Assembly (NCBI GenBank): GCA_963709875.1
Contig: CAVPYB010000001.1
Coordinates: 209,806-273,805, forward strand
Direction: 5' to 3'
Source: an uncultured Chloroflexia bacterium
GTDB lineage: Bacteria > Chloroflexota > Anaerolineae > Anaerolineales > UBA4823
Length of the DNA stretch: 64,000 nt
Below, piece after piece: positions 15,399-55,874 of this stretch. The stretch's first letter is position 1, and each line of letters opens with the position of its first letter. Position numbers and translations under genes: made by a program. The notes under the pieces were generated by a model, which worked only from the letters and a program-made list of their open reading frames with translations, did no database searches and was not told where the DNA came from.

Positions 15399-15743
15399 AT
15401 GGAGAATGCCATGCAAACGGAGTACATCATCGTCCTGATCACCGTCCCCTCCCAGGAGGTGGGTGAAGAGATCGCCGCCGCCCTGCTGGGTGGGAAGCTG
15501 GCAGCCTGCGTCAACATCCTTCCTTCCATCACCTCGATCTATGCCTGGAAGGGGGAAGTGCAGAACGACCGGGAAGTCCTACTGGTGGTGAAGACGCGCG
15601 CTGAACTGTTCCACGAGCGGCTGGTCCCGGCGGTGGAAGCCCTGCACCCCTACGAGGTGCCGGAGATCATCGCCCTGCCGGTGGTCATGGGCTCGCAGGG
15701 CTACCTGGATTGGATCGCCGCGGAGACAGAGCCAATAACATAA
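15399..15743 (+). CDS. cutA: CutA divalent-cation tolerance protein
   Basis: YIIVLITVPS...KLAACVNILP.ITSIYAWKGEVQ.D.E.LLVVKT...HPYEVPEIIALP is CutA1-like. Start at 15399 or 15411. Confidence 0.85.
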   Translation: MENAMQTEYIIVLITVPSQEVGEEIAAALLGGKLAACVNILPSITSIYAWKGEVQNDREVLLVVKTRAELFHERLVPAVEALHPYEVPEIIALPVVMGSQGYLDWIAAETEPIT

Positions 15744-15769
15744 CTACATATATCATGGGAGGCTATACT

Positions 15770-16972
15770 ATGCACTACGACTTCGACCGGCGCATCGACC
15801 TGCGCAGCACCGATTGCTCCCGCTGGCGAACCTATGATGAAGATGTGATTCCCCTCTGGGTGGCGGATATGGATTTCGCCTCCCCGCAGCCGGTGATCCG
15901 CGCCCTGCAAGAGCGGGTGGCGTGCGGCGTGTTCGGCTACCCTGAAGGCGCGGGTGGCAAGCCCAGCGAACAGATCGAGCTGCGCCAGATCATCATCGAG
16001 CGGCTGGACCGGCTGTATGGCTGGCAGGTGGAGCCGCAGGAGATCGTATTCGTGCCCGGTGTGGTCACCGGCTTCAATCTGGCCTGCCACGCGGTCGCAG
16101 AGCCGGGCGGGGCGGTGCTGGTGCAGCCGCCGGTGTACCACCCCTTCCTGGAAGCACCGCACAATGCCGGTATGGAGCGCCAGGACGCAGGATTGACCCA
16201 TCTGCCAGATGGTTCCTACGAGGTCGATTACGAAGCGTTCGCGGCGGCTGTCACTGACCGTACACGACTGTTTATATTGTGCAACCCGCACAACCCGGTA
16301 GGCAGGGTTTATCGTCGTGACGAGTTGGCGCGCCTGGCGGAAATCTGTCTGGAGCGTGGGGTGCTGATCTGCTCCGACGAGATCCACTGCGACCTGCTCT
16401 TTAAGGGCAGCCAGCATACCCCCATCGCCTCGCTCGACCCGGAGATCGCCCGCAGCACCATCACCCTGATGGCGCCCAGCAAGACTTTCAACATCCCCGG
16501 CTTGAAGTTCTCCTTCGCCGTCATCCAGAATCCCGAGCTGCGTGAGTTATATCAGAATTCGAGACGCGGTCTGGTAGGCTGGATCAACATCCTGGGCTGG
16601 GTGGCAGCAAAAGCGGCCTACCAGGAGGGGCAGGAGTGGCTGGGCCAGCTCCTGGCTTACCTGCAGGCCAACCGGGATTACCTCTTTGATTATGTGCAGA
16701 GTGAGCTTGCTGGGGTCAGCATGTCGCCGCTGGAGGCCACCTATCTGGCCTGGCTGGACTGCCGCGAGTCACGCGCCTGTGCGGCAGGCAACCCGCAGCA
16801 AATTTTTCTGGATCACGCCCGCGTGGCATTGAGCGATGGGGCGATGTTCGGCAGCGGGGGCGAGGGTTTCGTGCGCCTCAACTTTGGATGCCCGAGATCG
16901 CTGCTGGCTGAGGCGCTCGAGCGCATGAAAATGGCTCTGGAGGATGGGCGCAAACCGGACGGGCAGGTCTGA
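15770..16972 (+). CDS. PLP-dependent C-S lyase / aminotransferase class I/II (MalY/PatB family)
   Basis: MHYDFDRRIDLRSTDCSRW...LWVADMDF and the PLP-lysine motif SKTFNIPGLK. Start at the ATG at 15770. Confidence 0.85.
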   Translation: MHYDFDRRIDLRSTDCSRWRTYDEDVIPLWVADMDFASPQPVIRALQERVACGVFGYPEGAGGKPSEQIELRQIIIERLDRLYGWQVEPQEIVFVPGVVTGFNLACHAVAEPGGAVLVQPPVYHPFLEAPHNAGMERQDAGLTHLPDGSYEVDYEAFAAAVTDRTRLFILCNPHNPVGRVYRRDELARLAEICLERGVLICSDEIHCDLLFKGSQHTPIASLDPEIARSTITLMAPSKTFNIPGLKFSFAVIQNPELRELYQNSRRGLVGWINILGWVAAKAAYQEGQEWLGQLLAYLQANRDYLFDYVQSELAGVSMSPLEATYLAWLDCRESRACAAGNPQQIFLDHARVALSDGAMFGSGGEGFVRLNFGCPRSLLAEALERMKMALEDGRKPDGQV

Positions 16973-40177: not shown

Positions 40178-40249
40178 GGGCGCGTAGCTCAATGGTAGAG
40201 CAGTGGCCTTTTAAGCCATTGGTTGCAGGTTCGAGCCCTGCCGCGCTCA
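40178..40249 (+). tRNA. tRNA-Lys (anticodon UUU)
   Basis: Manual cloverleaf: acceptor GGGCGCG/CGCGCTC, D arm GCTC-AATGGTA-GAGC, anticodon arm GTGGC-CTTTTAA-GCCAT, variable loop TGGTT, T arm GCAGG-TTCGAGC-CCTGC, discriminator A. No encoded CCA. Confidence 0.95.
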
Positions 40250-40252
40250 CTG

Positions 40253-40969: not shown

Positions 40970-41737
40970 TCAAGGGTTATATTTTCCAATACCAGCCAGG
41001 ACGTTTACGCGATCTTCACAAAGATCGGTGCCAATAACTTGCATGCGGAGTGAAATTGGTTTGTTGTTTTCAGTTGTCACATAAGCCTCATAGGTTGAGG
41101 TTTGGCCACTGCACCCAGCATCAAATGTTACCTTTCCTGCATCAAAGTTGTAAGTGCCAGAGTCTATCTGCCCAATGTTTTTCGACCCAGAAATGACCCG
41201 GTAGGCTCCATCTGCATCGAATTCAATCTTCAACCCCCCTTGTGGGTACCACCAAGTACCGACGATGTCATTAATCGTATTGGCGAGTGACTTTATTGGT
41301 GTGGGAAGTGGTGGAGGAAATTTCGCTAAAGAATCTGGAGCTGTAGTGAAGGTATAGGCCTGGATTTTTCCATTTTTAATCGTGGCGACCCACTCTCCTT
41401 CGATGAAGTCTACACCCATTGCTTGCAATCCTTCATCGGTATATGTAGAAATACAGGTCATGGTATCGCTCACAAATTTACAGTCCCTTAAAGATCCTGA
41501 ACCTATTCCAGAAGCAATTATCTCGTACCAGCTGCGAATTTCAGAGTGACCATTGTAAACACCGTCTCCTTCGGCAGGAGGGATAATGGTTACCTCCGCA
41601 TCTTCTGCCAGGTAAGAGAGTGCTGCATTAATTTCGCCTTTGTTCAAGGCTTCCTGCCAAGAATTGACCAAATCCTGGGTTGAAGGGCTGCATGCTGCAA
41701 TCAGGATGACAAAAAATATAAGTAACGTTATTTGTTT
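40970..41737 (-). CDS. Lipoprotein with an NTF2/SnoaL-like domain
   Basis: MKQITLLIFFVILIAAC (signal plus lipobox). The N-terminal ~110 aa resemble the SnoaL/NTF2 fold pattern. Function unknown. Confidence 0.5.
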   Translation of the reverse strand, partial: KQITLLIFFVILIAACSPSTQDLVNSWQEALNKGEINAALSYLAEDAEVTIIPPAEGDGVYNGHSEIRSWYEIIASGIGSGSLRDCKFVSDTMTCISTYTDEGLQAMGVDFIEGEWVATIKNGKIQAYTFTTAPDSLAKFPPPLPTPIKSLANTINDIVGTWWYPQGGLKIEFDADGAYRVISGSKNIGQIDSGTYNFDAGKVTFDAGCSGQTSTYEAYVTTENNKPISLRMQVIGTDLCEDRVNVLAGIGKYNP

Positions 41738-41870
41738 CATGGGATCCTCCAATCTGAAAGTCTAATTTTTTGACGCATTTTCGCCCTTATAATAACAATT
41801 AGCTGTTGGGAAAACGTGGGGTAAATACAACCTCTGATATTAATATGAATTACGTAGTTGGAAGGATGAT

Positions 41871-41916: not shown

Positions 41917-42042
41917 CCTTAAACTGCGTAAGTCCTAATTAATTGAATTCGTTTATTAAATTGGTGAAACAAATATCTGGAGGTGCAGAAGTATCCCTGT
42001 ATAATTAACTCCAGGTCCACGTTTCTCACTTTTGAGGCGCAC

Positions 42043-45000
42043 ATGAAAACCTTAATAATTTCTGTGCTTGGGTCTCTACAAGTTGTTACAACAACGCCGA
42101 TCCAGAACAAGTTTGAGTCGAACAAAGTACGCGCCCTCCTGGCATATCTTGTTATCGAAATGGACCGGCCGCATCATCGCGAGGTGCTGGCCGATATGCT
42201 CTGGCCTGAAAGCTCGACTTTGACAGGACTGGCGAATCTTCGATACGCCCTGGCGGACCTCCGCAAAGTTATCGGAGATCATGATGCGAATCCCCCCTAC
42301 CTCTTGGTCAGCCGCGGAAATCTGCAATTTAACTCCTCGAGTAATTTTGAACTAGACGCCTCTCAATTTGCTAATTTTCTAAATACGAAAGATATTGAGA
42401 AACTCAAGCAAGGCATTGCGCTCTATCAGGGTGATTTCCTTAGCGGATTTCCTTCCATAGAGAGCAATATGTTCGAAGAGTGGCTCCTGCTCAAGCGCGA
42501 ACATTTCAAAGAGCTAGCCATCGAAGCCTTGCGCCTCATTGCTGACTATCACGAACATCGCGGAGAATACCAGCAAGCAATGCCATTTACCCGCTACCAG
42601 ACGGAGCTTGAACCCTGGCTCGAGGAAGCCTACCAGCAGTTGATGCGCTTACTCGCATTGGACGGTCAACGAAGTGCCGCGCTTGCCCAATACGAGATCT
42701 GCCGCCGTTCACTGATTTCTGAATTAGATGTTGAGCCAAGCGATGAAACGATCCAACTATACGAATCAATACGTGACGGGACTTTTAAAAAAGTTCCTCA
42801 CCTACTAAAACGAGAGCCTCCCGCGCCTGGCGAGCCGCCCTTCAAGGGACTTCAATATTTTGATGAGTCAGATGCAGATATATTCTTCGGTCGTGAAGCA
42901 TTGATTTCCCATTTGGTGGGACAGATTCAGTATCGGGAAAAATCAAGACGGGTGCGGTTTTTGGCAATCATTGGGGCATCAGGTAGCGGCAAATCATCAA
43001 TAATTAGAGCCGGATTGATTCCAGCCTTGAAACGAGACAGCAGGCCCCGCCTTGTTCAAATTATCACTCCAACAGAATACCCTCTTGATTCATTATCTTC
43101 CTGCGACATAGACAGCCCAACAGCAAAAGGACGACTTTTCTTCATTGTGGATCAATTCGAGGAGCTGTTTACTCTATGTCAGAATGAAAGTGAGCGCAGG
43201 TTTTTCATCGATAAATTGCTTAATGCCGCTGAAGAAGGATTGGCTTTTGTAGTCATCGCCCTTCGAGCAGACTTTTATGCAGCATGCGAACCTTATGAAA
43301 ACCTTCGCAGGATCCTGAGCCAGAACCAGGAATACATCGGTCCAATGAAGGCCAGCGAGCTAAGCCGGGCGATTGAAGAACCGCCCCGTGTTTATGGATG
43401 GCTGTTCGAACCGGGTCTGGCGGATTTACTGCTCCGCGACATTGGAGCAGATGGTGATCGCTCTCCAGAACCTGGTGCGCTCCCATTGCTGTCTCACGCG
43501 CTGTTGGAAACCTGGCATCGACGAAGTGGGCGAATGCTTACCCTGGCTGGCTACGCGGAATCAGGTAGTATCCATGGAGCCATCGCGAAAACCGCTGAAT
43601 TTGTATATGCCCAGCTATCAGAAAGCGAACAGTTCATCGCCCGCAATATCTTCCTGCGCCTCACAGAATTAGGAAAAGGAATGCAAGAAACTCGTCGCCG
43701 GGTTTTATTAAGCGAAATTATCCCGGCATCCAAATCAACATCGACCCAGGGTAAATCAATTGAAATCGTTTTGAAAATGCTTTCAGACGCGCGGCTTGTC
43801 ACCACAACAGAGGTGACCGCCGAGGTAGCACATGAAGCCTTGATCCGAGAGTGGGCCAGGCTTCACGAATGGCTGTCAGAGAATCGGGAATGGCTGCAAT
43901 TGCATCGTCATATCACAGAGTCAGCACAGGAATGGGAGTCGCAAGGGTATGATCCAGGTTTAGTCTATCGAGGTACTCGACTGGTACAGGCTCTGGAGTG
44001 GGCTAAAGCTCATTTGGAGGATTTGAATTTATTGGAGCGAGAATTTTTAGAAACCTCCAAATCTATAGAAGAAAAAGCAGCGGCTGAACGGGAGGAGCAA
44101 CGACAACGCGAATTGGAAGCTGCGCGCAAGTTAGCTGAATCTGAAAGAGAGCGTGCGGAAGGACAAACGCGAGCAGCCAGGCAGTTACGCCAGCGCGCCT
44201 TTTATTTAGCAAGTTTACTGTTTCTCTCACTGATCTTGGTCATCACTGCTTTTGTACAGCGTAATACTGCCAACAGACAGGCCCATCTGGCCTCAGCGCG
44301 TGAATTAGCCCTCGCATCAATCAATAATTTAGATAAGGACGCAGAACTCAGCATCCTTCTGGCATTAGAGGCAGTTTCGGAATCCAGATTAGCACGCGTA
44401 CCGGTTCCTTACCAGGTGCAAGATGCACTTCATAAAGCAATCCAAAATTCTAGGATCCATTACACCCTAGCAAAGCATAGTGGTGCTGTTGTAGCAGTAA
44501 CATACAGCCCCGATGGAAAGTTGTTGGCAACAGCCGGCAGTGATAAAAAAGTAATTCTTTGGGAAGCTGCAACGGGAAAAGAGCTGATGACTTTATATGG
44601 TCACAGCCAAGGATTGGAGGATATCGCATTTAGCCCGGACGGCAGGTATTTAGCGACAGCCAGCGATGACAAATCAGTCAAGCTGTGGAATCCTTTAAAT
44701 GGGCAAGAGTTGCGTTCGTTCACCGGCTTTACAGATGTCATTTGGAAAATCTCCTTTAGTGCAGATAGTAATTTCCTGGCAACCGGTGGCAACGAGACTG
44801 CCATCGTATGGGATATAAATACCGGACAATCAATTCTGATTTTAGAAGCGCAACACGCTCCTATCGCTTTTAGCCCCCTTGGGAAGTACCTTGCAACTTC
44901 TGGGGATGATGGCACAACAAAGTTATGGGATACAGATTCGTGGGAGGAATATCTTTCTCTTCCCTATGCCGCGAATGCGCTTGCCTTCAGTCCAGATGAG

Positions 45001-46344
45001 GAACGCCTTGTAACAGCAATGGAAGAGTTTAAAGTCTGGGATGTTCTAACCGGCGAGGAACTGATGACCCCGGCAGAATTTAAAGCTGTCGTCATAGGCA
45101 TCGAGTTTAATCCGGATGGAAGTCAGTTGGCGGCGGGAAGCCAGGATGGGACAGTGGGCATATGGGATTCGCAGACTGGAAAACGTTTGTTTATTCTGGC
45201 AGGTCATGCTGGTGCGGTCAATGATGTATCATTCAACCCAGCATGTACCGCTCCTCCAGTAGCTGCATTCGAATGGTGTGGAGGTTGGCTTGCCACGGCC
45301 AGCCGTGATGGAACGGCAAAAGTTTGGGATGTCTCTCCGGCTGGTAGTCGTGAGCTAGCTACGCTGCCGGGATTTTCTGGGTATCTCTTTAGTGAAACAC
45401 AACTATCTACCAATAAATTTATCAGCCAAAATGAGGTAGAAGTCAAAACATGGGATATATCGCTGGATGGAGCGAGCCGGTGGATTTCAAACAGCCTAAT
45501 CAGCCATCCGGCACCAATAATTCTTGGGAATAGCAGTATAGATGGATCGTTTATCGTTACCGTGGATATAGATAACACTGTGGAAGTCTGGAATGCAAAG
45601 GCGAGTAAAGAGGTGGCTTCTTTTCTGATAGATCAGAGCTCGCCATTGGCTGGTGTCGCCGTAAATTCTACAGGAACGCAAGCAACGACAGTAGGAAACG
45701 ACGGGATAGCAAAGGTATGGGACGCTACTACAGGGCGCGAATTGTTGAATTTGACAGGATTTGCTGGCGACATTGTTGGCGTTGCCTTCAGTCACGATGG
45801 AAAGCTAATTGCCATAAGTAAGTATGATGGTCCTGTCAAAGTATGGGAAATCGCAACTGGAAAGGAGGTATTAACCCTAATTGGCCACACACTGCCTGTC
45901 TATGTGATTTCTTTTAGTCCAGATGGTCAGCGAATTGCTACCGCCGGTATGGATCAGACCGCCAGAATATGGGATGTTCAAAGTGGGAACAATCTGTTCA
46001 AGCTAGAAGGACATACAGCTTCAGTCATCGCCTTGGCATTCAATACAGATGGATCTCTTCTGGTTACTGGCAGTCACGATGGAACAGCGAGAATATGGGA
46101 CATTTCGAATGGACCACAGGGAGGTGAGGAGTTACTCACTTTAATAGGGCATGATGGTTACATTGATTTCGTTTCATTCACCCCTGGGGGAAAACGTTTC
46201 GCTACAGGAAGTTTACAAGATGGAACGATACGCCTTTATCTTCTGGACATCATGGAAGTGGCTGAATTGGCACAAGCGCGACTTACCCGCTCACTGGCTC
46301 TAAAGGAGTGTCAGAAGTACCTGCATCTGGCAACTTGTCGCTAA
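42043..46344 (+). CDS. SARP (OmpR-type wHTH + BTAD) - STAND P-loop NTPase - TM helix - WD40 propeller protein, 1433 aa, intact
   Basis: N-terminus VLGSLQV...NKVRALLAYLVIE..HREVLADMLWP + BTAD (IALYQGDFL..EAYQQLMRLLALDGQRSAALAQYEICRRSL). PFKGLQYFDESDADIFFGRE. Walker A GASGSGKSS and Walker B FFIVDQFEE. Coiled coil, then TM AFYLASLLFLSLILVITAFVQ. Many WD40 units (GHSQGLEDIAFSPDGRYLATASDDKSVKLWN etc.). Confidence 0.85.
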   Translation: MKTLIISVLGSLQVVTTTPIQNKFESNKVRALLAYLVIEMDRPHHREVLADMLWPESSTLTGLANLRYALADLRKVIGDHDANPPYLLVSRGNLQFNSSSNFELDASQFANFLNTKDIEKLKQGIALYQGDFLSGFPSIESNMFEEWLLLKREHFKELAIEALRLIADYHEHRGEYQQAMPFTRYQTELEPWLEEAYQQLMRLLALDGQRSAALAQYEICRRSLISELDVEPSDETIQLYESIRDGTFKKVPHLLKREPPAPGEPPFKGLQYFDESDADIFFGREALISHLVGQIQYREKSRRVRFLAIIGASGSGKSSIIRAGLIPALKRDSRPRLVQIITPTEYPLDSLSSCDIDSPTAKGRLFFIVDQFEELFTLCQNESERRFFIDKLLNAAEEGLAFVVIALRADFYAACEPYENLRRILSQNQEYIGPMKASELSRAIEEPPRVYGWLFEPGLADLLLRDIGADGDRSPEPGALPLLSHALLETWHRRSGRMLTLAGYAESGSIHGAIAKTAEFVYAQLSESEQFIARNIFLRLTELGKGMQETRRRVLLSEIIPASKSTSTQGKSIEIVLKMLSDARLVTTTEVTAEVAHEALIREWARLHEWLSENREWLQLHRHITESAQEWESQGYDPGLVYRGTRLVQALEWAKAHLEDLNLLEREFLETSKSIEEKAAAEREEQRQRELEAARKLAESERERAEGQTRAARQLRQRAFYLASLLFLSLILVITAFVQRNTANRQAHLASARELALASINNLDKDAELSILLALEAVSESRLARVPVPYQVQDALHKAIQNSRIHYTLAKHSGAVVAVTYSPDGKLLATAGSDKKVILWEAATGKELMTLYGHSQGLEDIAFSPDGRYLATASDDKSVKLWNPLNGQELRSFTGFTDVIWKISFSADSNFLATGGNETAIVWDINTGQSILILEAQHAPIAFSPLGKYLATSGDDGTTKLWDTDSWEEYLSLPYAANALAFSPDEERLVTAMEEFKVWDVLTGEELMTPAEFKAVVIGIEFNPDGSQLAAGSQDGTVGIWDSQTGKRLFILAGHAGAVNDVSFNPACTAPPVAAFEWCGGWLATASRDGTAKVWDVSPAGSRELATLPGFSGYLFSETQLSTNKFISQNEVEVKTWDISLDGASRWISNSLISHPAPIILGNSSIDGSFIVTVDIDNTVEVWNAKASKEVASFLIDQSSPLAGVAVNSTGTQATTVGNDGIAKVWDATTGRELLNLTGFAGDIVGVAFSHDGKLIAISKYDGPVKVWEIATGKEVLTLIGHTLPVYVISFSPDGQRIATAGMDQTARIWDVQSGNNLFKLEGHTASVIALAFNTDGSLLVTGSHDGTARIWDISNGPQGGEELLTLIGHDGYIDFVSFTPGGKRFATGSLQDGTIRLYLLDIMEVAELAQARLTRSLALKECQKYLHLATCR

Positions 46345-46502: not shown

Positions 46503-46800
46503 CTAAAATGATGATCTTTCTCTAAGTCATTGTGAAGCGAATCCATTGGTACTTCCACGTTGACAGACCTTTACTAAAAATATCCAAGAGACTTATTTCT
46601 CCATTCGTCCAATGGACTGGGGCAATTCTGCCAGGCTCTTGGTTGGATGAAGCGGTTACAGGGATCTCGTCCTTTTAAGCCATTGGTTGCAGGTTCGAGC
46701 CCTGCCGCGCTCACTCAATCTCCACTTTGACCCCGAAACGGGGCGTAAAACGAGTGATTTCTCCCACTAAGACCTGCCAGTTGGCGGGTTTTTGTGTTTA
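46503..46800 (+). repeat. ~300-bp duplicated module, copy A, containing the tRNA-Lys 3' 45-mer (46671-46715)
   Basis: It aligns with 52683-52990 on both sides of the exact 45-mer. It contains TAAAAT, nested helices (CCAAGAG/CTCTTGG) and a terminator CCTGCCA-gt-TGGCGGG-TTTTTGTGTTT. Confidence 0.9.
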
Positions 46801-46908
46801 ACTTCTGGGTGAAAATAAATTACCAGAGTAAGTTGCAAATAACGTATCTCTTGTTTGGCGGTTAGAATTAATTTATTAAGAACATATCACTCTTTTTGTC
46901 TGGTAATG

Positions 46909-46936
46909 CACAACAATAAGGTGTATAATTGTTGTG
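46909..46936 (+). promoter_or_regulatory. Promoter -10 plus palindromic operator of the RHH/MazF pair
   Basis: Inverted repeat CACAACAAT (46909-17) / ATTGTTGTG (46928-36) embraces TATAAT (46924-29). Confidence 0.5.
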
Positions 46937-46973
46937 TAGTTCAGGCATGCGGGCAAAAGGAGGCGATCCAAGT

Positions 46974-47207
46974 ATGCACCGTACTCAAATCTTACTCGAA
47001 CAAGAACAGCACAAAGCTCTCACAGCCATAGCCCAGCGCGAGAATCGCAGCCTGTCCGATGTGGTCAGGGAGATGTTGCGGAAGCAGCTTGAAGAACGTA
47101 AAAAAATGGAGCTGACCGCAGCCGCGAGGGCATTACTGCCTGATTACCAGGGCGATTCTGAATTGACCGCTTTCAACGCGCTCGATGCAGAGGATTTCCA
47201 TGCGTAA
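46974..47207 (+). CDS. Ribbon-helix-helix (CopG/MazE-like) antitoxin
   Basis: MHRTQILLEQEQHKALTAIAQRENRSLSDVVREMLRK shows the RHH pattern. RBS AAAGGAGG. The stop overlaps the toxin start (ATGCGTAA). Confidence 0.8.
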   Translation: MHRTQILLEQEQHKALTAIAQRENRSLSDVVREMLRKQLEERKKMELTAAARALLPDYQGDSELTAFNALDAEDFHA

Positions 47208-47538
47208 AGGCGAAGTGTGGCTCATAAATCTTGATCCAACCATTGGAGCAGAGATCCAAAAAACGCGCCCGGCGATCATCGTCAATGAAGACGCTATTGG
47301 CATTTTACCGCTGCGAGTCATCGTCCCGTTGACGGACTGGAAAGAGCACTACCAGATCGCCCCGTGGATGGTGCGGATCGATCCGAACACGTCGAACGGC
47401 TTGAGCAAACCTACCGCCGCAGATGCATTTCAAATCCGCTCGGTGTCCCAGGTCAGGTTTATCAACCGCCTGGGTCGAATTTCTAGTGAACAGCTTTTGG
47501 AAATCTTGAAAGCCATTCAAACCGTCATTGGCACTTGA
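47200..47538 (+). CDS. mazF: MazF/PemK-family toxin endoribonuclease
   Basis: MRKGEVWLINLDPTIGAEIQKTRPAIIVN..LSKPTAADAFQIRSVS matches the PemK/MazF pattern. Confidence 0.85.
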   Translation: MRKGEVWLINLDPTIGAEIQKTRPAIIVNEDAIGILPLRVIVPLTDWKEHYQIAPWMVRIDPNTSNGLSKPTAADAFQIRSVSQVRFINRLGRISSEQLLEILKAIQTVIGT

Positions 47539-47661: not shown

Positions 47662-49620
47662 CATAACTCGACGTTCGCTCATTTTTTAGCACAAAAACCA
47701 AATTTCTGGTATGCTCGCCAGCATGGAGAAAATCGAAGTTGGCGAGGTACAGGTTGAAAGACTGGATGATATACCTGTCATCTTTGGACATTTACACAAG
47801 ATTCACATACAAGGGGTCATTGATCGAGAGATCGAAACCCACGGCAACTGGGAAGGGCTGAGCCCTGGATGGCTGATCACGATCTGGCTGGTCCACATTC
47901 TCTCGGAACACAACCACAACATGGATCGGGTGCAGGAATGGGTAGCCAAGCGGTTACAGGTCTTGCGAGCATTGACGGGGCAAGTCCTGACAGAGCTGGA
48001 CTTTACCGACGACCGGCTGGCATTGTGCTTGCGGAAGCTGAGCCAGAGTGAAACCTGGCAATAGATCGAAGCTCAACTCGGCGTGCATCTGGTGCGGGTG
48101 TACCGGCTAGGAGCAAAGCCGACCGTGCGGCTGGACGCCACCACGGGGACGGTAAACCACGACCCGGATAAACACACCCTTTTCCAAGTTGGTAAGGCCA
48201 AGAATGGGCAGTATGAGACCCAATACAAGCTGATGCTGGCCAGCCTGGATCCCCTGGGGCTGCCCTTGGCGGTGGACGTTGTTTCCGGGGAGCGTGCCGA
48301 TGATCCGCTCTATCTGCCTTGTTACCAGCGGGTGAAGCAGGTGCTCTTTGAAAACGGTGTCCTGGTGGTGGGCGACAGCAAGATGAGTGCCTTCTTTACT
48401 CGAGCAGCCCTTGCCGCTGGCGAGGATTTCTACCTAACGCCGCTGGCCCATCTCAAGGATGAGCCCGGGCTGCTGGAAGCGCTGCTGACGCCCTGGATGG
48501 AGCGGGAAGATGAAATGGAATGCATTTTCCTGCCTGAAGATGGCCCTAATCCGGACCCGACGCTGGCCATTGGGCATGGTTTTGAGGTCAACAGAAACCA
48601 AGAAGTCGATGTGGATGGTCAGGGTGCGGCCTGGACGGAGCGGCTTCTGGTGGTACGTTCTCACCAATATGAGAAGACCATCAAGAAAGGGCTGCATCAT
48701 CGCTTGGAGAAAGCGGAGCAAGCGCTGAAAGGCTTGACCCCAGCTCGAAGCCGTGGCAAGCGTCAAATCGAAGATGAAGCCAGCCTGCTGGCAGCCATCC
48801 AGCGGATCGAAGAGAAGTACCGAGTGGCAGGGCTTTTCGAGTATCACTATGAGCAAGAGGTTTCTGAGCAGCAGGTGCGAGCCTACGGTGATCAGCCTGC
48901 TCGCACAGAACGCCAGGTGCGCTTTCAATTGACGGTCGAACGCAATCCGGAAGCCATCGCAGCCGCTGAATTCAACGCCGGATGGCGTATCTACCCACCA
49001 ACGCACCCGCTGAACAGCTGCCCTTGGACCAGGCTGTGCTAGCCTACCGGGACCAGTACATCGAGGAGAACTTCTTCCGCCGTTTGCAGGGCAAGATCCT
49101 ATCTATCACCCCAGTCTATGTGCAGCGTGATGACCATGCCAAAGACTTGTTTCATCTGCTGACCCTGGCCGCAAGACTGCTGGCCCTGGGCGATCATCTG
49201 GCCAAAGCAAATCTGGTCCAAGCGCAAGCCGAACTGGCGGGGATCTATCCCGGCAACCCAATGCGCAGTACTGCCACGCCAACCACGGAGCGCATGCTGG
49301 CCGCTTTCGATAACATCAACCCGACCGTCATACCGGTTGCGGGTCAACTGCACTATCAGATCACACCCCTCACAGCCGTGCAGCTGCGTATCCTGGAACT
49401 CTGGGAGCTGCCCGATACCCTGTACACGCAATTTTGCGCATAAAAACCCAGACAGTAGTGCGTCAGTTCCTTGTATGTGATTGTTAATGTCCCGTTTTTC
49501 AACCTTTTCGTGGGTATTTGCTGGCCTGGACGATGGATTTCAAACTCAGATTGTTTCGTCCATTTCTGCTAACGCCCGAATCCGTTTTTTCGCTTTCAAA
49601 ATCAGCGAACGTTCAGTATG
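47662..49620 (+). mobile_element. IS1634-like (IS4 superfamily) insertion sequence with a decayed transposase
   Basis: Imperfect ~29-bp terminal inverted repeats: CATAACTCGACGTTCGCTCATTTTTTAGC (47662-) versus the reverse complement of GCTTTCAAAATCAGCGAACGTTCAGTATG (-49620). No clear target duplication seen. Confidence 0.6.
47711..49443 (+). pseudogene. IS1634-family transposase with one in-frame TAG (48062-64) and one frame break (~48990)
   Basis: ORFs 47711..48064 and 48083..49042 are in the same frame, separated only by TAG (..SETWQ*IEAQLG..). The C-terminal part (..YLPTNAPAEQLPLDQAVLAYRDQY..) is in ORF 48982..49443. Confidence 0.8.
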
Positions 49621-49633
49621 AAGGATCGAAGCG

Positions 49634-50326
49634 ATGGATTACCAGGAATTCATTAATCTGTGGCTTGAAGCATTGGGGCAGGCGCGTTTCCCCAGTCTTC
49701 ACCTCCTGCGTCCCAGTGAAACCATCGATATCCGTTCCATGGATCGCACCTATAAGAACTATCTTCGGTGGCCGGAGACGCCTGAAACCAAGACTTTCCA
49801 TGTGACCGCTGAAATCTCATGGGTATGGGACTCCCTGCTTTCGGCTCGCTTTGCGACCACCGAAGAAGATATGCTGATGCAAATCTATGGTGATTTCGGC
49901 ATCTATGAGGATACTGAACCTCCCTGGTTGCGGATCGACATGGCCTTACATGCTACAATCTCGCTCGATAAACGTTTCCCTTTACCATTATTAGAAATTT
50001 GGCAGCGCTGGGAAAGAAATGTGAGCTTAGAGTTGGAGCCCTTCTTACCGGGCGGGAACTATAGTGAAGATAGTGACCAGGATACGCTTGGCTGGCATGG
50101 AAATCCGGAAGCAGTAATCACTTTTGATGCTCAAGGTCAAACGTTCTTACAGGCAGTAACTCTGAGGTCGTGGCAGGGAATCAATCTGCCGCGGCAATGG
50201 GATGATCCAGATAAAGCAGACCCTGATCTAGGTGAACAACTTTACCAATTCGCTACAAATATCAAGCAAGCGTTAGGAACCTGGCAAAATAGTCTTGTAC
50301 ACTTGCTTGAAGGTCATGAACCATGA
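49634..50326 (+). CDS. Hypothetical protein (230 aa), first gene of a three-gene operon
   Basis: Intact ORF. Its stop overlaps the next start (ATGA at 50323-26). No family recognised. Confidence 0.5.
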   Translation: MDYQEFINLWLEALGQARFPSLHLLRPSETIDIRSMDRTYKNYLRWPETPETKTFHVTAEISWVWDSLLSARFATTEEDMLMQIYGDFGIYEDTEPPWLRIDMALHATISLDKRFPLPLLEIWQRWERNVSLELEPFLPGGNYSEDSDQDTLGWHGNPEAVITFDAQGQTFLQAVTLRSWQGINLPRQWDDPDKADPDLGEQLYQFATNIKQALGTWQNSLVHLLEGHEP

Positions 50327-51215
50327 AAACGAACGTTGAACGCGTCCTGGATTATTTATGCTCGGTGAGCCCAAATGGTGCTACCAACGCGGAAATACGT
50401 GTGGCAACGGGCATTCAGCCGCACCAGCAAGTTTACATGATCACCAGTAGTCTCGTTCAGATGCGATTCGGGATCCGTTTTCTCACCTGGACAGATTATG
50501 GAATATTATGTTTCCCTTCAGGAGTCTCACAATGCCTCGCAGACCCGAAACCCTGGAACTTGTGCTTATTGCGGTGAGATGATTACCAAGCGCGGTGTAG
50601 TTAAACACATAGATAAATGTCCTAAAAGACAGGGAGCTCTTTCTGCTGCAGAAGCCAGCAGCCGGCCGGTGGAAACGCTCTGGCATTTACGCGTTCAAGA
50701 TGCTTACGATAAGGATTTTTGGCTCGACCTGGAAATGGTCGGCTCAGTATCACTCGATAAGCTCGATAAATACCTGCGCGCCATCTGGTTGGAATGTTTG
50801 CGGTCACCTGAGCAAGTTCACGATTGGCGGGTGGGGTGGCTTGGATATAGGTAAAGCGCGTAAAGCCAATGCGATATTTGAACCTGGACTGGTTCTGCGC
50901 CATCTGTATGACTTTGGCACCACGTCCGAGACCGATATCAAAGTGGTTGGATTCCGGGAAGGAAAAGCGACCACGAAACATCCAATTGCCTTGCCGGCGC
51001 GCAATCGGATGCCAGAATTTGTCTGCCAGGAATGCGGTCCGCCGGCGCAATGGCTGTGTATCGAATGTGTTTACGAAGAGGAAAATAGCGGCTATCTTTG
51101 TGACGATCACATGGAAGAACACCCGCACGAGAATTATGGCGAACCGATGCCCTTGGTCAACTCTCCACGCACCGGGATGTGCGGTTATGATGGCCCAGCC
51201 GAGCCGCCGTATTAA
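50323..51215 (+). pseudogene. wHTH + Zn-ribbon + MM3350/PRiA4_ORF3-like domain + C-terminal Cys/His cluster protein, with two homopolymer frame breaks
   Basis: N-terminus ERVLDYLCSVSPNGATNAEIRVATGI (wHTH). CAYCGE..KHIDKC. LWHLRVQ..FWLDLEM..LDKLDKYLRAIWLEC|CGHLSKF..HLYDFGTTSETDIKVVG (PRiA4_ORF3-like). CQECG..CIEC..CDDH..H. Breaks at the T-runs at 50479-82 and 50797-99. Confidence 0.65.
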
Positions 51216-51232
51216 CAGGGTGTCCAACAACC

Positions 51233-51778
51233 ATGCTACCGGCCCAGCCACAATTCCCTCTCGATGATTCGACCTGGATCATCTCCGACACTCATTTCTT
51301 CCACCAGAACATCGGCCGATACTGTGATCGTCCGGATGGCTGGCAGGAGATGATCATCGACAACTGGAACCGCCTAATTCAACCCGAAGAGATTGTCTTC
51401 CACGTCGGAGACCTGGCGCTTGGCAGGAGGAAAAATATCGAAGGCTTAGCACCTCTGCTCAACGGCCGGCTCTACCTTATGCGGGGCAACCATGATCAGC
51501 GCAGCAATGGTTTCTATCAGCACCTGGGGATTACCCTGGTATCAGATCCATATCGAATGGATCACCCCTCGGGGTTGAACCTGATCTTTTCGCACCGCCC
51601 TATCGTCCCCCTGGAACTGGGCTTGCTCAACCTGCACGGTCACATCCACAACAATCTAGCTCCCGAGCTGGGAGCACAATACGTCAACCTGTGTGTCGAA
51701 GTTCGAGACTATCGCCCCTGGCGGTTGGAGGAGATTCTAGCTCCTTATCAGCCGTCTACTGAACCCCATTTTGAATAG
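51233..51778 (+). CDS. Small calcineurin-like metallophosphoesterase
   Basis: Motifs ISDTHFFH, HVGDLALG, RGNHD, SHRP, HGHIHN. Confidence 0.8.
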   Translation: MLPAQPQFPLDDSTWIISDTHFFHQNIGRYCDRPDGWQEMIIDNWNRLIQPEEIVFHVGDLALGRRKNIEGLAPLLNGRLYLMRGNHDQRSNGFYQHLGITLVSDPYRMDHPSGLNLIFSHRPIVPLELGLLNLHGHIHNNLAPELGAQYVNLCVEVRDYRPWRLEEILAPYQPSTEPHFE

Positions 51779-51856: not shown

Positions 51857-51895
51857 ATTGTGTACACAATAATCATTGTTTACTTTCTGTGCACA
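51857..51895 (+). promoter_or_regulatory. Palindromic operator candidates upstream of phd/PIN
   Basis: ATTGTGTACACAAT (perfect 14-bp palindrome, 51857-70) and TGTGCACA (51888-95), followed by TATACT (51901-06) and RBS GGAGGTG. Confidence 0.45.
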
Positions 51896-51933
51896 TTATG
51901 CTATACTGGTTCTGTTTAGAATGGAGGTGCAGT

Positions 51934-52230
51934 ATGACTATAGTTATTGGTGCGCGTGAGGCTCGCCGGCGGTTTGCTGATTTGCTTGGGCGGGTCGGCT
52001 ACGGCGGAGAGGTTGCCATCGTTGAGCGGTCGGGCAAACCCATGGTGGCGCTCATCCCCGTAGAAGTTTATGAACAGTTGGTGGCTGAGCGTGAGGCGCG
52101 TTTCCAGGTGCTGGATCGCATCCGCGGCAAGCTGCCGGAGATCCCAGAAGAAGAAGTTGAGACCGATATCAGCCAGGCTATTGATGTTGTGAGGAAGTCA
52201 GCGTCTAAAGAACGGGCAGAGTCTGATTAG
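51934..52230 (+). CDS. Phd/YefM-family antitoxin
   Basis: MTIVIGAREARRRFADLLGRVGYGGEVAIVERSGKPMVALIPVEVYEQL shows the Phd/YefM pattern. Confidence 0.8.
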   Translation: MTIVIGAREARRRFADLLGRVGYGGEVAIVERSGKPMVALIPVEVYEQLVAEREARFQVLDRIRGKLPEIPEEEVETDISQAIDVVRKSASKERAESD

Positions 52231-52235
52231 CCACC

Positions 52236-52664
52236 ATGCTGCGCATCGTGATCGACACGAATGTGATTGTCAGCGGCATCTTGAGCCGTAAAGGAACGCC
52301 GGCTGAACTATTAAATGCCTGGCGTGAGCGGCGGTTTTTGTTGCTCAGCTCCTCTGCTATCGTTGCCGAAGTACGGGCCGTCATGCAATATCCGCGCATC
52401 CATAAAAAATATCATCTCAGCGATGATGATATTGAACAGACGATTACACTCTTGGAACATGACTCGCTGTTGGTAGCAGGAGACGCCGATGTCACCGGAA
52501 GTGTCCCGGATGATCCAAAGGATGAGATGTTTCTGGCTTGCGCTTTGGACGGGCAGGCGGATGCAATCGTGAGCGGTGACCATCACCTGCTAGATCTAGG
52601 TGTCTTTCGGGATATCCCGATTATCAATGCTCGTCAATTTCTGGACCAACTGAAGCAAGAGTGA
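52236..52664 (+). CDS. PIN-domain toxin (VapC-like)
   Basis: MLRIVIDTNVIVSG..., DDPKDEMFLACAL, AIVSGDHHLL carry the PIN acidic residues. Starts 6 nt after the antitoxin. Confidence 0.8.
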   Translation: MLRIVIDTNVIVSGILSRKGTPAELLNAWRERRFLLLSSSAIVAEVRAVMQYPRIHKKYHLSDDDIEQTITLLEHDSLLVAGDADVTGSVPDDPKDEMFLACALDGQADAIVSGDHHLLDLGVFRDIPIINARQFLDQLKQE

Positions 52665-52682: not shown

Positions 52683-52990
52683 TAGAATGAACTCAATCGC
52701 TGTCTTTCGCTGAGTCATTGTGAAGCAAATCCATTGGTTGCTTCCGCGTTGACAGACCTTTACTAAAAATATCCAAGAGACTTATTTCTCCATTCGTCCA
52801 ATGGACTGGGGCGATTCTGCCAGGCTCTTGGTTGGATGAAGCGGTTACAGGGATCTCGTCCTTTTAAGCCATTGGTTGCAGGTTCGAGCCCTGCCGCGCT
52901 CACTCTATTTCCACTTTTGCCCCTAAAAGGGCGTAAAACGAGTGATTTCTCCCACTAAGACCTGCCAGATGGCGGGTTTTTGTGTTTAAT
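52683..52990 (+). repeat. ~300-bp duplicated module, copy B, containing the tRNA-Lys 3' 45-mer (52860-52904)
   Basis: See copy A. TGGTAGAAT at 52681-88. Terminator CCTGCCA-ga-TGGCGGG-TTTTTGTGTTT. Confidence 0.9.
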
Positions 52991-53215: not shown

Positions 53216-55386
53216 TTAGCTGAACTTCAGGGGCAGACGGCGAAAGCGCTGACCCGTGGCAGCAAAAACCGCATTCGCCACAGCAGCTGGAATGGGACCA
53301 ATCGGCGGTTCACCCATACCCGAAGGCGTTGAGCGGCTGTTGAGCACCAGGACATCGATATCCGGAGCGTCGGCATTACGCAGCAGCGGATATTCATTGA
53401 AGTTGCTCGCCTTGAATGCACCGTCTTCGATCAGCACCACCTCCAGCAACGTGGAGCTCAAGCCCATCGTGATCGCGCCCTCCGTCTGGGCTTTGACGCT
53501 GTCTGGATTGATAGCCATGCCAGGGTCAGCAACGGCGGTCACTTTGTGAATACGAATCTGACCATTCTCAACGGAGACTTCAGCAATTTCGACGATTATT
53601 GTACCAACATCGTAGCTCATCGCCAGCCCTTGCGCGTGACCAGCTGGCAGGGCTGCTCCCCAGTTTGCCTTTCGGCAGCCGTTTGCAGGGCATTGCGAAT
53701 TCTCTGCCCCTTTTCATTATCCGGCAGATGGCGCAGCCGGAACTCCAGTGGGTCCAGACTTGCGGCTGCAGCCAGCTCATCGATGAAACTCTCCACTGCA
53801 AAGGTATTGGCCATCAGACCCAACCCGCGCCACCAGCCAGTCGAGACCGGTAATTTCACCAGCCAGGCTGTGGTTTGGATATTCTGCACCCCATAATTGA
53901 TGGTAGCCCCGCGATAGGAGCCAAAATCGGCGCCCAGCAACCTGCCAACAGCACTGGGCAGGAAGGCAAAGGCGACCTCCCCGCTGGCTGCCTGGTGCTC
54001 TAGCGCCAGCATATTCCCATCTTCAGCCAGGCTGGCACGCAGGATATGATGCGTGGGTGGACGTACAAAACCGCTGCGGAAATCTTCTGGGCGGTTCATC
54101 GCCACCTGCACCGGTCTACCCGCAGCCTGCGATAGGCGAGCCGCCTCCACCGCGGCCCGCTCGTCGATCTTGCGCCCGAACCCACCTCCCAGGTAAACGG
54201 GATGGATGACAACCTCTTCTTCTTTTCGCCCAATGGCATCCGCAACCGCACCGCGCAACCGGTTAGCTGCCTGTGTCGAAGCCCAGACTTCCACCTTTTC
54301 TGTCCGCACATCAGCAACGGCTGCCAGAGGCTCTAAATAGGCGTGGTATGCCATCGGGGTGCGGTATTCAGCTTCGACCAACGTGCCACGTGCCAGCGCC
54401 TGATCCAGGTTGCCTTCTTTCTGGATCACCACGCCCTGACCTTTGCCTACCGTGACCATGGCCTCAATTTCCTGCTGCTGCCATAACCTGCCAGCGTCCC
54501 ATTCCAGCTGCATCTGAGACAGCGCAGTATAAGCCTGCTCGCGCAACTCGGCCACCACCCCGGCAAAATCGTCATCTGCCACAACCTGCACCACCCCGGG
54601 TTGACTTTCGGCCTGACCCGGAGCAGCCCTCCTCAACTTGCCATCGATGGTCTCGGGGCGAGCGACAGCACCATACAACATTCCCGGCACACGCACATCG
54701 AATCCATAAACCGCCTGACCGGTGATCTTTGCAGGTAAATCTACGCGCGGCAGCGGCTGACCGATGGTACGATACTGGCTGGGTGGCTTGAGCGCGGGCG
54801 GGGATTCGGGTATCTCCCATTCACCTGCTGATATAAACAGGTCGCCATATGTACGCTGCTGGCTGGGATCTGATTTCAAACTGAAAACGCCGTTTTCCAG
54901 GTTAAGATTTTCGGGTTGGGTATTTAACTGCAAGGCGGCCTCGGCGCGCAGCAGCTCTCGCAGCGTGGCTGCCACTTCCAGCAAAGGAACATACAAACCA
55001 GAAATCGTGTTGCTGGCTGATGTGGCAACCGGGTCTGCCAGCCGGTCTGTCGCTGCATGGTGCACCCGGATCTGCTCCAGGTCAATTTCAAGCTCCTCCG
55101 CTGCAATCTGAGCCAGACCGGTGTGCACACCCTGGCCCATCTCGGATTTCGGCAGGTAGAGATTGACCGTGTTATCTGGCAGGATTTCAAACCAGGCATC
55201 CGGAGGGGCATCAAGATTTGAAGGAGGGCCGCCCGACTCTTCCAGAAATTCTGCCAGCCTCAGGCGTAATGGCGGCGTGCCCAGCCTTACCCCGACGTAA
55301 AGCCCGGCAGCACCCACGCCAAGCATAATCAGGAAATTACGCCGGCTCAGACGCCTTCGTTTTTGGGGGGTAATCTGTTCGCTCAT
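53216..55386 (-). pseudogene. Molybdopterin-binding subunit of an IorB/aldehyde-oxidase-type oxidoreductase (Tat signal), with one homopolymer frame break
   Basis: Start MSEQITPQKRRRLSRRNFLIMLGVGAAG (twin-arginine). ORF 53617..55575 continues in ORF 53216..53620. Restoring one A in the run at 53670-72 gives ..AAEKANWGAALPAGHAQGLAMSYDVG.. Confidence 0.75.
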
Positions 55387-55874
55387 GCTCTCTCGCTCCC
55401 CGAAAGCGTCGCCAGTTCTGCTGCGCGAGCCACAGCCTTGCGGATGCGGTAATAGGTCCCGCATCGGCAATAAACGTTGTTCATAGCCTGAAGGATATCC
55501 TCCGCATCTGGGTTGGGGTTCTGTTCCAATAAGGCTGCGGCAGTCATCATCTGTCCAGACATGCACCATGAGCACTGCGGCACCTGCTCATCCAGGAAGG
55601 CCTGCTGTACCGGGTGCAGCACAGGTTTCCCGTTGGCATCTGCTTCCGCCAGTCCCTCGATCGTGCGCACTTCTTTGCCATTAGCGGCGGATAACAAGGT
55701 GATGCATGCGCGTGTTGGAGTGTTATCCAGATGCACTGTGCACGAGCCGCACATGCCAATCCCACAGCCGAATTTGGTGCCGGTTAAGCCAAGCTCATCC
55801 CGCAGCACCCACAACAATATCCTGTCATACTCATCAGCAACCTGATAGGCTTGATTATTTACCATTAATTTCAT
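55383..55874 (-). CDS. [2Fe-2S]-binding small subunit (IorA/CoxS-like)
   Basis: FGCGIGMCGSCTV and QCSWCMSGQ..CRCGTY (two 2Fe-2S motifs). ATGA overlap with the large subunit. Confidence 0.85.
   Translation of the reverse strand: MKLMVNNQAYQVADEYDRILLWVLRDELGLTGTKFGCGIGMCGSCTVHLDNTPTRACITLLSAANGKEVRTIEGLAEADANGKPVLHPVQQAFLDEQVPQCSWCMSGQMMTAAALLEQNPNPDAEDILQAMNNVYCRCGTYYRIRKAVARAAELATLSGSERA

Follow-up and report, generated by a model that had tools for sequence, protein, structure and literature searches.

The described systems closest to the genes considered here are type II toxin-antitoxin (TA) and nuclease-immunity pairs, endonucleases that fuse a winged helix-turn-helix (wHTH) to a PD-(D/E)xK core, the SoFic protein with its downstream antitoxin, and defence islands integrated at tRNA genes. 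The genes lie at positions 49634-51778 of a 64,000-nucleotide stretch of DNA from an uncultured Anaerolineales bacterium (phylum Chloroflexota; contig CAVPYB010000001.1), the whole of which is called the window below. A preliminary description had presented them as an orphan operon of three genes, encoding an unknown 230-residue protein (gene 1, g1), a single protein joining a wHTH to a Zn-ribbon and an MM3350 (PRiA4_ORF3)-like domain, and a small metallophosphoesterase (MPE). Comparison with related loci makes it likely that 49634-51778 is the leftover cargo of an island integrated at a tRNA-Lys gene, brought together by deletions and by the insertion of an insertion sequence (IS), rather than an operon that evolved as a unit, and we infer a mechanism for g1 and a nuclease whose gene is truncated in the window.

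In related islands g1 and the nuclease gene resemble type II TA and nuclease-immunity pairs in that the genes overlap, the candidate effector comes second, the two products co-diverge and the effector is often lost with its upstream partner kept. They differ in that g1, at 230 residues, lacks a DNA-binding domain and any known antitoxin domain, the wHTH being carried by the nuclease itself, in that g1 frequently stands by itself while the nuclease is also paired with different upstream genes, and in that the effector is gone from the window. Intact relatives of the nuclease share with wHTH-fused PD-(D/E)xK endonucleases a winged helix, a linker and a core with E...D...DxK residues, but they have no Pfam or PDB sequence match and the window keeps just 42 wHTH codons. 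In E. coli a downstream antitoxin of SoFic, the 47-residue AS1, has been reported (PMC12249575), and in the related islands a SoFic-type gene stands immediately 5' of g1; however, g1 is several-fold longer than AS1, and phmmer searches with the Fic proteins and integrases of these islands found no match in the 64-kb window (which was not scanned for integrases with Pfam in general). Finally, the likeness to tRNA-integrated islands with tandem att repeats consists of an intact tRNA-Lys at the start, the 3' 45 nt of which are repeated twice, together with TA pairs and an IS, and the relatives carry a tyrosine integrase with SoFic, HNH, AbiE and PDC-S62-like genes. By contrast, module 2 of the window, which holds the three genes, has no match to the related-island integrases and its boundary repeat is unusually long (about 290 nt).

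The deletion junction behind gene 1

Firstly, the middle reading frame joins parts of two genes. The ATGA overlap given in the preliminary description is real: g1 (49634-50326, + strand) ends with TGA at 50324-50326 and the next ATG occupies 50323-50325. The open reading frame (ORF) begun at 50323 continues to 50577, and its first 42 codons (50323-50448, + strand) are the remnant of a ~206-residue wHTH plus PD-(D/E)xK-like nuclease gene, aligning with positions 1-47 of the 208 in the hidden Markov model (HMM) of that family (E = 1.8e-20); the remainder runs through unrelated sequence. Relative to loci with intact copies (L004, L020, L029 and L114, related loci being numbered in this form throughout) and to the further relatives L030, L031 and L032, DNA homology stops at 50448. 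The 83 nt that follow (50449-50531) form the deletion junction and have no counterpart by blastn or blastn-short in any of the related loci or elsewhere in the window. The window copy stops at codon 42, so that part of the wHTH is kept and the catalytic α-β-β-β-α-β core is absent, and W13, invariant in the nuclease family, is replaced by C.

Beyond the junction a separate gene starts at ATG 50532 (50532-51215, + strand; placed by DNA alignment with L001, L024 and L072), encoding a zinc-finger, PRiA4_ORF3-like and Zn-ribbon protein that has 227 residues in relatives. In L001, a contig with a 94%-identical g1, it is an intact free-standing protein (MPRRPENPGTCAYWGE...CCGHLSKF...PAEPPY) whose gene matches window positions 50532-51217 at 89% DNA identity, and free-standing copies of 227 residues also occur in L024, L025-28, L072 and L120-124. 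The 120 closest family members are 226-240 residues long with a conserved MPRRPENPGTCAYCGE N-terminus, and in none of them is an N-terminal wHTH present. The single middle gene of the preliminary description is therefore a nuclease 5' remnant followed by a second, independent gene, and no wHTH-Zn-MM3350 protein would be recovered by correcting the frame. Because the wHTH piece and the PRiA4_ORF3-like gene are separate genes, the close spacing of the trio is a product of deletion and not of operon design.

Secondly, the trio does not recur. About 120 related loci, drawn from genomes, metagenomes and homologue-encoding contigs, were annotated with HMMs of the three families, and the contiguous arrangement was seen in none of them, the window alone having it; two independent pairs recur instead, so the recurrence as a unit that a three-gene system would show was not found. 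Four loci (L001, L020, L072 and L114) carry g1 with the PRiA4_ORF3-like gene, the MPE gene or both, with 1.3-6.8 kb of differing cargo between them, and either gene is found near g1 only within a clade of at least 88% identity. A genuine three-gene system for element maintenance or anti-phage defence, superficially damaged by frameshifts, would account for the contiguity of the genes on one strand, with their ATGA overlap and 17-nt gap, for the lack of a convincing intergenic terminator and for the presence of all three families together in L001 and L114, the most closely related islands. Against it stand the absence of a second contiguous trio, the end of wHTH homology at codon 42 of what is elsewhere a 206-residue nuclease gene, the unfused wHTH, the loss of the invariant W13 and the fact that g1 mostly occurs without the other two genes. 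Such a system is very improbable, and that reading is largely refuted. The promoter and terminator scan found 8 promoter-like sites against 3.2 ± 2.2 expected, none of them compelling.

The PRiA4_ORF3-like gene is itself interrupted. The stretch 50498-51215 can be read only with two frame switches, positions 4-90 and 88-227 of the family HMM landing in two frames, and a four-way DNA alignment places the causes exactly: the window is short of one A of an A4 run (AAA at 50548-50550) and has an extra T (TTT at 50797-50799, where relatives read TGCTGC). With both indels reverted the frame is a 227-residue ORF with no stop and a ratio of nonsynonymous to synonymous substitution rates (dN/dS) of 0.14 against L001, equal to that between intact copies, so the damage is either very recent or an artefact of assembly. 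That the frameshifts here and in the nearby IS transposase are homopolymer assembly errors, leaving the PRiA4_ORF3-like and MPE genes a fully functional pair, has a substantial chance of being right, if somewhat below even. Both indels lie in homopolymer runs, the corrected ORF is full length under the same constraint as intact copies, the IS transposase is likewise broken (into three ORFs), and the related contigs are long-read-style, as judged from record names. Errors of this kind are nevertheless not frequent, because a 4.36-kb ORF (41983-46344), g1, the MPE gene and both TA pairs of the module have no frameshift; moreover, the deletion that truncates the nuclease gene is not a homopolymer artefact, and the internal loss in a neighbouring molybdopterin-enzyme gene (MoCoBD_2 positions about 1-200) is apparently real.

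The protein consists of an N-terminal C2HC-type zinc finger, a central PF07929-like region (residues ~62-161) and a C-terminal zinc ribbon. The MM3350/PRiA4_ORF3 likeness proposed earlier survives as weak similarity, all of it below threshold: relative to the gathering cutoff of 26.6 bits, the intact L001 protein reaches 16.1 bits (E = 0.009) with PF07929 and the window protein, once frame-corrected, 14.7 bits (E = 0.026), and 29 of 30 relatives have a sub-threshold match (best E = 1.8e-4) that takes in the region of the CCGHLS-type motif. These matches indicate a divergent relative rather than an established member of PF07929, from which the flanking zinc finger and zinc ribbon also set it apart. 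Among PDB chains, neither sequence nor profile searches turned up a solved homologue, PADLOC gave no match at E <= 1 for the frame-corrected window copy or at E <= 0.01 for an intact copy, IMG/VR held two distant matches, and what the literature yielded on the function of PRiA4_ORF3/MM3350 was limited to papers on plant transformation and to genome reports. The family is large (3417 clusters) and conserved (75-92% identity over 120 clusters, dN/dS 0.05-0.19), and its genes are found on islands and in ordinary chromosomal neighbourhoods alike.

The third gene (51233-51778, + strand) is an intact 181-residue calcineurin-like MPE, in agreement with the preliminary description, and the short gap in front of it is real, with 17 nt (51216-51232) between the stop at 51213-51215 and its ATG. 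Its assignment as an MPE rests on a PF00149 score of 28.4 bits (cutoff 21.5) and on all five MPE motifs, read from the translation (D19-T-H21, G59-D60, G85-N-H-D88, H121 and G136-H-I-H139). The closest solved structure is aq_1665 (PDB 1xm7, E = 1.6e-10), and the match to phrog_547 'phosphoesterase' (E = 5e-39) makes it the sole product of the trio with a PHROG assignment; PADLOC gave no match at E <= 1. What sets this MPE apart from the aq_1665 type is its island context: in L001, L020 and the window it occupies the right end or a place close to it. It is found also in L025-28 and L114, and in most cases, if not in all, it follows the PRiA4_ORF3-like gene. The pair is contiguous in the window, in L025-28 (25-nt gap) and in L114 (with the 5' third of the first gene replaced), L001 has two extra genes between them, and L024, L072 and L120-124 have the PRiA4_ORF3-like gene without MPE. 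The MPE gene and its upstream partner thus appear to recur towards the right end in this family of islands. The L114 replacement is a chimeric 274-residue ORF (15448-16272) directly upstream of MPE, in which PRiA4_ORF3-like residues ~70-227 follow an N-terminal ~100 residues that resemble, by eye, the N-terminus of HsdR/Mrr-like proteins of type I restriction, a sign that the variable slot of the islands may rearrange into flanking genes.

Gene 1 and the nuclease of related islands

g1 is a real gene of a family without annotation, so far confined to Chloroflexota. The earlier statement that the first gene matches nothing is borne out by Pfam, NCBIfam, PADLOC (E <= 1) and PHROG and by sequence and profile searches of the PDB, none of which returned a match, and a Pfam scan of 58 distant homologues produced no recurrent family. 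The AlphaFold2 model has a predicted local distance difference test (pLDDT) score of 82 and a predicted template-modelling (TM) score of 0.79, and Foldseek searches of the PDB and BFVD with it returned noise only (best E at least 1e-3, TM about 0.2). Homologues form 89 clusters when grouped at 90% identity, and 436 representative clusters when the limit is 50%; full-length members among those listed are single-domain proteins of about 220-260 residues, with the conserved motifs WDALLSARFATTEEDMLMQ, PPWLRxD and LPRQWDDP. All 16 genome matches are from Chloroflexota, mostly Anaerolineae, one metagenomic homologue (P0056) is labelled Candidatus Tectomicrobia, and IMG/VR viral contigs contain no g1. 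Values of dN/dS against relatives (0.14-0.39) indicate purifying selection. A nucleotidyltransferase-like reading of the motif "GDFG...LRxD" was rejected, as the catalytic DxD is absent and Foldseek gave no nucleotidyltransferase match.

The nuclease gene is intact in 14 loci, where a gene of 206-211 codons overlaps g1 or starts 0-9 nt after it (L006, L007, L009, L020, L029, L045, L046, L049, L050, L052, L072, L083, L114 and L115). The family comprises 795 clusters, every member of which is named "hypothetical protein" and none of which has a Pfam domain. In the AlphaFold2 model of an intact relative (pLDDT 82) residues 1-63 form a winged helix, followed by a disordered linker and a C-terminal α-β-β-β-α-β domain. 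E92, D131, K147 and E153 are invariant in the family, and D120 and K133, in the motif FDLVSPDGxIVGDAKY, are nearly so. Foldseek matched the model to many winged-helix regulators (ArsR, MarR and AspA) at probability 1.0, and the sole match to the C-terminal part was a weak one (E = 4e-3) to YaeQ (3c0u), a member of the PD-(D/E)xK superfamily. No Pfam match and no PDB sequence or profile match was found, PADLOC gave none for the intact protein at E <= 0.01, and IMG/VR held two distant matches. In the relatives, the gene that is truncated here probably encodes a wHTH-fused PD-(D/E)xK nuclease, judging from the model and the conserved residues.

About 91 g1 loci with downstream DNA could be scored for the state of the nuclease gene next to g1. 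It is intact in 12 (14 with L114 and L115), frameshifted in 2, cut by a contig end in 1, a remnant in 17 and absent from 59. Across 10 intact pairs the identities of g1 and the nuclease correlate closely (r = 0.96), g1 diverging faster between the two clades (42-48% identity versus 66-72% for the nuclease). Decay is also asymmetric: beside an intact g1 the nuclease gene has decayed in 19 loci (about 14 independent events) and is intact in 14, whereas g1 is damaged beside the nuclease in a single locus (Fisher p = 1e-4 to 1e-6). The ATGA overlap, the co-divergence and the asymmetric decay together argue for a coupled pair.

The neighbours of g1 offer two other accounts. In the window clade, all loci that have upstream DNA (L001, L004, L020, L029, L030, L031, L032, L043, L114 and L115) carry a SoFic-type Fic gene 30-80 nt ahead of g1, and Fic genes occur near g1 in L002, L015 and L033 as well; given the downstream SoFic antitoxin reported (PMC12249575), g1 could be the antitoxin or regulator of the Fic protein and not a partner of the nuclease, the window copy being orphaned by SoFic loss. 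We regard this as unlikely: g1 exceeds AS1 in length by far (230 versus 47 residues), about 78 of 91 g1 loci have no Fic nearby, the whole 'MNYQEF' clade has g1 and the nuclease with no Fic upstream, and in L025-28 a related SoFic-type Fic gene precedes a 381-residue protein and not g1.

Somewhat more credible, though still doubtful, is that g1 is a stand-alone accessory gene (a single-gene defence, an anti-defence gene or a regulator) and that its adjacency to nuclease, SoFic and SWIM genes reflects shared insertion hot spots. In its favour, nuclease-less copies make up the majority of the g1 loci, a conserved partner looked for among them was not found, their neighbours being heterogeneous (TPR/STAND NTPases, integrases, MNT nucleotidyltransferases, Fic and SEC-C proteins), and purifying selection on g1 persists in the window though both candidate partners are gone. 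The start/stop overlap and the r = 0.96 co-divergence across two deep clades speak against it, as does a 584-residue SWIM protein (PADLOC candidate PDC-S62, E = 7.5e-18) encoded directly upstream of g1 in 8 other loci with a gap of 18-150 nt. Because of this overlap and co-divergence, together with the recurrent SWIM neighbour, we favour functional coupling over chance adjacency.

Remnants of the nuclease gene stand beside g1 in the window (50323-50448), L002 (4686-4897), L003 (8686-8784), L044, L048, L057 and L086, and independent truncations tend to spare the best-conserved stretch of the wHTH, encoded by the first 27-56 codons. Breakpoints fall at HMM positions 19, 27, 34, 36, 36, 45, 47, 47 and 56, and another three lie beyond these, at 96, 106 and 179. 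One remnant is common to L003 and L035-37, where the g1 proteins are only ~88-90% identical. This bias in length may reflect selection for a short wHTH peptide, selection for signals needed by g1, or chance. As second gene of an overlapping pair the nuclease is also found behind MgsA/RarA in a chromosomal context (L021-L023, 6001-6627) and behind a 237-residue HEAT-repeat protein (L109-L113, 5001-5639), where genes of 235 and 167 codons follow; the HEAT-repeat protein of L109 was tested as a distant g1 relative and rejected. Gene order in these loci would fit a conserved effector, the nuclease, whose upstream partner can be exchanged.

The island family and the flanks of module 2

The close relatives L001, L020, L029, L032 and L114 (g1 86-96% identical) share an architecture in which a tyrosine integrase and a 242-residue gene on the opposite strand are followed by Fic_N/Fic, g1, the nuclease, a variable slot, the PRiA4_ORF3-like gene, MPE and a TA pair. 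The order Fic-g1-nuclease...PRiA4_ORF3-like-MPE is seen with differing inserts in L001, L020, L072 and L114, the slot holding a 149-residue gene and DUF5131 (L001), an HNH/ScoMcrA-like gene (L020), a DUF559 endonuclease (L072) or AddAB (L114). The Fic protein matches PADLOC SoFic (E = 1.5e-120) and the HNH gene of a related island matches PADLOC HNH. The proposal that the genes at 49634-51778 are mobile-element or anti-phage cargo holds in that they sit in an island with TA pairs and that g1 relatives stand beside SoFic, PDC-S62-like SWIM and HNH genes; the three-gene system proposed with it is not supported.

Homology of the window to these islands starts 18 nt upstream of g1, at 49615/49616, and the left part is replaced by an IS and a MazEF pair, so the window keeps only parts of the backbone. 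Relative to the shared architecture, the integrase, the 242-residue gene and SoFic have been replaced by the MazEF pair and the IS, a deletion from nuclease codon 42 to a point just upstream of the PRiA4_ORF3-like gene has removed the catalytic domain together with the variable slot, and that gene carries its two homopolymer frameshifts (very recent, unless these are assembly errors). The intact frames that are left are those of g1 and MPE, which come from different modules.

The island array starts at its integration target, an intact tRNA-Lys(UUU) gene (40178-40250, + strand; ARAGORN), and three identical copies of the 45-nt tRNA 3' end lie at 40207-40251 (inside the intact gene), 46671-46715 and 52860-52904. 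As the preliminary description had it, the three genes lie between two TA pairs in an att-bounded module. The left boundary repeat of module 2 (46515-46801, + strand; ~290 nt, with direct-repeat families D1-D4) and the right one (52703-52989, + strand) each hold a tRNA 3'-end copy and are 92-100% identical; what they have in common extends beyond the tRNA fragment by ~156 nt on its upstream side and ~85 nt on its downstream side, and they share just the 45 nt with the intact tRNA-Lys. These long repeats suggest two related islands in tandem, with an attachment site (attP) of long tRNA-flank homology.

Within module 2, a ribbon-helix-helix (RHH) antitoxin (46929-47207; PF13467/PF01402) and a MazF/PemK toxin (47185-47538; PF02452, E = 3.9e-24) occupy 46929-47538 on the + strand. 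An IS transposase follows (47711-49443, + strand; DUF4277, E = 2e-7, and DDE_Tnp_1, E = 4e-4), at the place where relatives carry the integrase, the 242-residue gene and SoFic; its consecutive ORFs of 117, 319 and 153 residues imply two frameshifts, and with the PRiA4_ORF3-like gene this makes four frame breaks in 3.5 kb as against none in the neighbouring 4.4-kb ORF. At the right end of the island a Phd/YefM antitoxin and a PIN toxin (51889-52664, + strand; PF02604 and PF13470) are collinear with L001 at 86%. Unannotated proteins of 381 and 197 residues, without a Pfam, PADLOC or PHROG match, travel with the island family, beside the PRiA4_ORF3-like gene or g1 in several loci (L025, 3964-5719; L024, 9581-11336; L124, 4390-4983; L098, 2-1497; L079, 263-1432; L059, 4412-5521).

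Module 1 consists almost entirely of one ORF of 1453 residues (41983-46344, + strand), which by sequence has an apparent BTAD/SARP N-terminus, a P-loop NTPase, a coiled coil and WD40 repeats in a STAND-like arrangement; PADLOC returned weak P-loop matches alone (mad3 and mad8, E about 1e-4), and the protein could be an Avs-like sensor. A 260-residue ORF on the minus strand of module 1 (40970-41752) has no PDB relative that would mark it as an integrase. Just beyond the island a molybdopterin-dependent oxidoreductase gene (53216-55575, - strand) is broken into ORFs of 652 and 134 residues, the second MoCoBD_2 domain retaining profile positions 200-283 only with about 1-200 missing, which suggests an internal deletion and not a simple frameshift. 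Because this gene is also broken, gene decay or assembly problems extend beyond the island.

The gene 1-nuclease pair as a candidate module

In intact islands g1 and the nuclease gene would form a translationally coupled module: the nuclease would be its harmful effector, kept in check or controlled by g1 in the manner of an antitoxin, an immunity protein or a regulator; the g1 of the window would then be an orphan left after loss of its partner. The overlap and the pattern of loss and co-divergence suggest such a toxin/immunity relationship. Several points weigh against this interpretation and against an eroded locus. The relation is drawn solely from gene order, co-divergence and asymmetric decay, and the loci were retrieved via g1, which biases the decay asymmetry. 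As 59 of the about 91 g1 loci have neither the nuclease nor a remnant, g1 does not need it; conversely, the nuclease family is the larger (795 clusters) and also occurs behind MgsA/RarA (L021-23) or the HEAT-repeat protein (L109-113). The PD-(D/E)xK assignment draws on motifs, topology and the single weak YaeQ match, with no Pfam match. Lastly, should the frameshifts be assembly errors, the window would have a working PRiA4_ORF3-like gene and the locus would be less eroded than described.

We tentatively propose that g1 and the nuclease may constitute an undescribed two-gene toxin/immunity or anti-phage module, so far found in Chloroflexota only and linked to SoFic in one clade, in which g1 would be a new fold that controls the nuclease and window-type copies would be orphan immunity genes. 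This proposal is less probable than its negation, and it is reasonable to treat the pair as a candidate on the genomic evidence assembled here.

For the window itself the result is mainly a correction, a plausible orphan operon proving to be a deletion junction in a decaying island, and cloning the frame-corrected trio would test an arrangement absent from the ~120 related loci surveyed. Erosion of an island is an ordinary process; the gene families underneath it are uncharacterised. They belong to a recurrent family of Anaerolineae islands whose backbone is fixed and whose variable slot gathers DNA-targeting and defence genes, and they include the zinc-finger/PRiA4_ORF3-like protein, which is very conserved, abundant and uncharacterised, and two unannotated families, g1 (436 representative clusters) and the nuclease, that behave as a co-inherited pair. 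The part most worth following up is the uncharacterised g1, normally in front of a DNA-binding nuclease. If the two do form a toxin/immunity or defence module, they would add a system from a phylum almost unexplored for defence.

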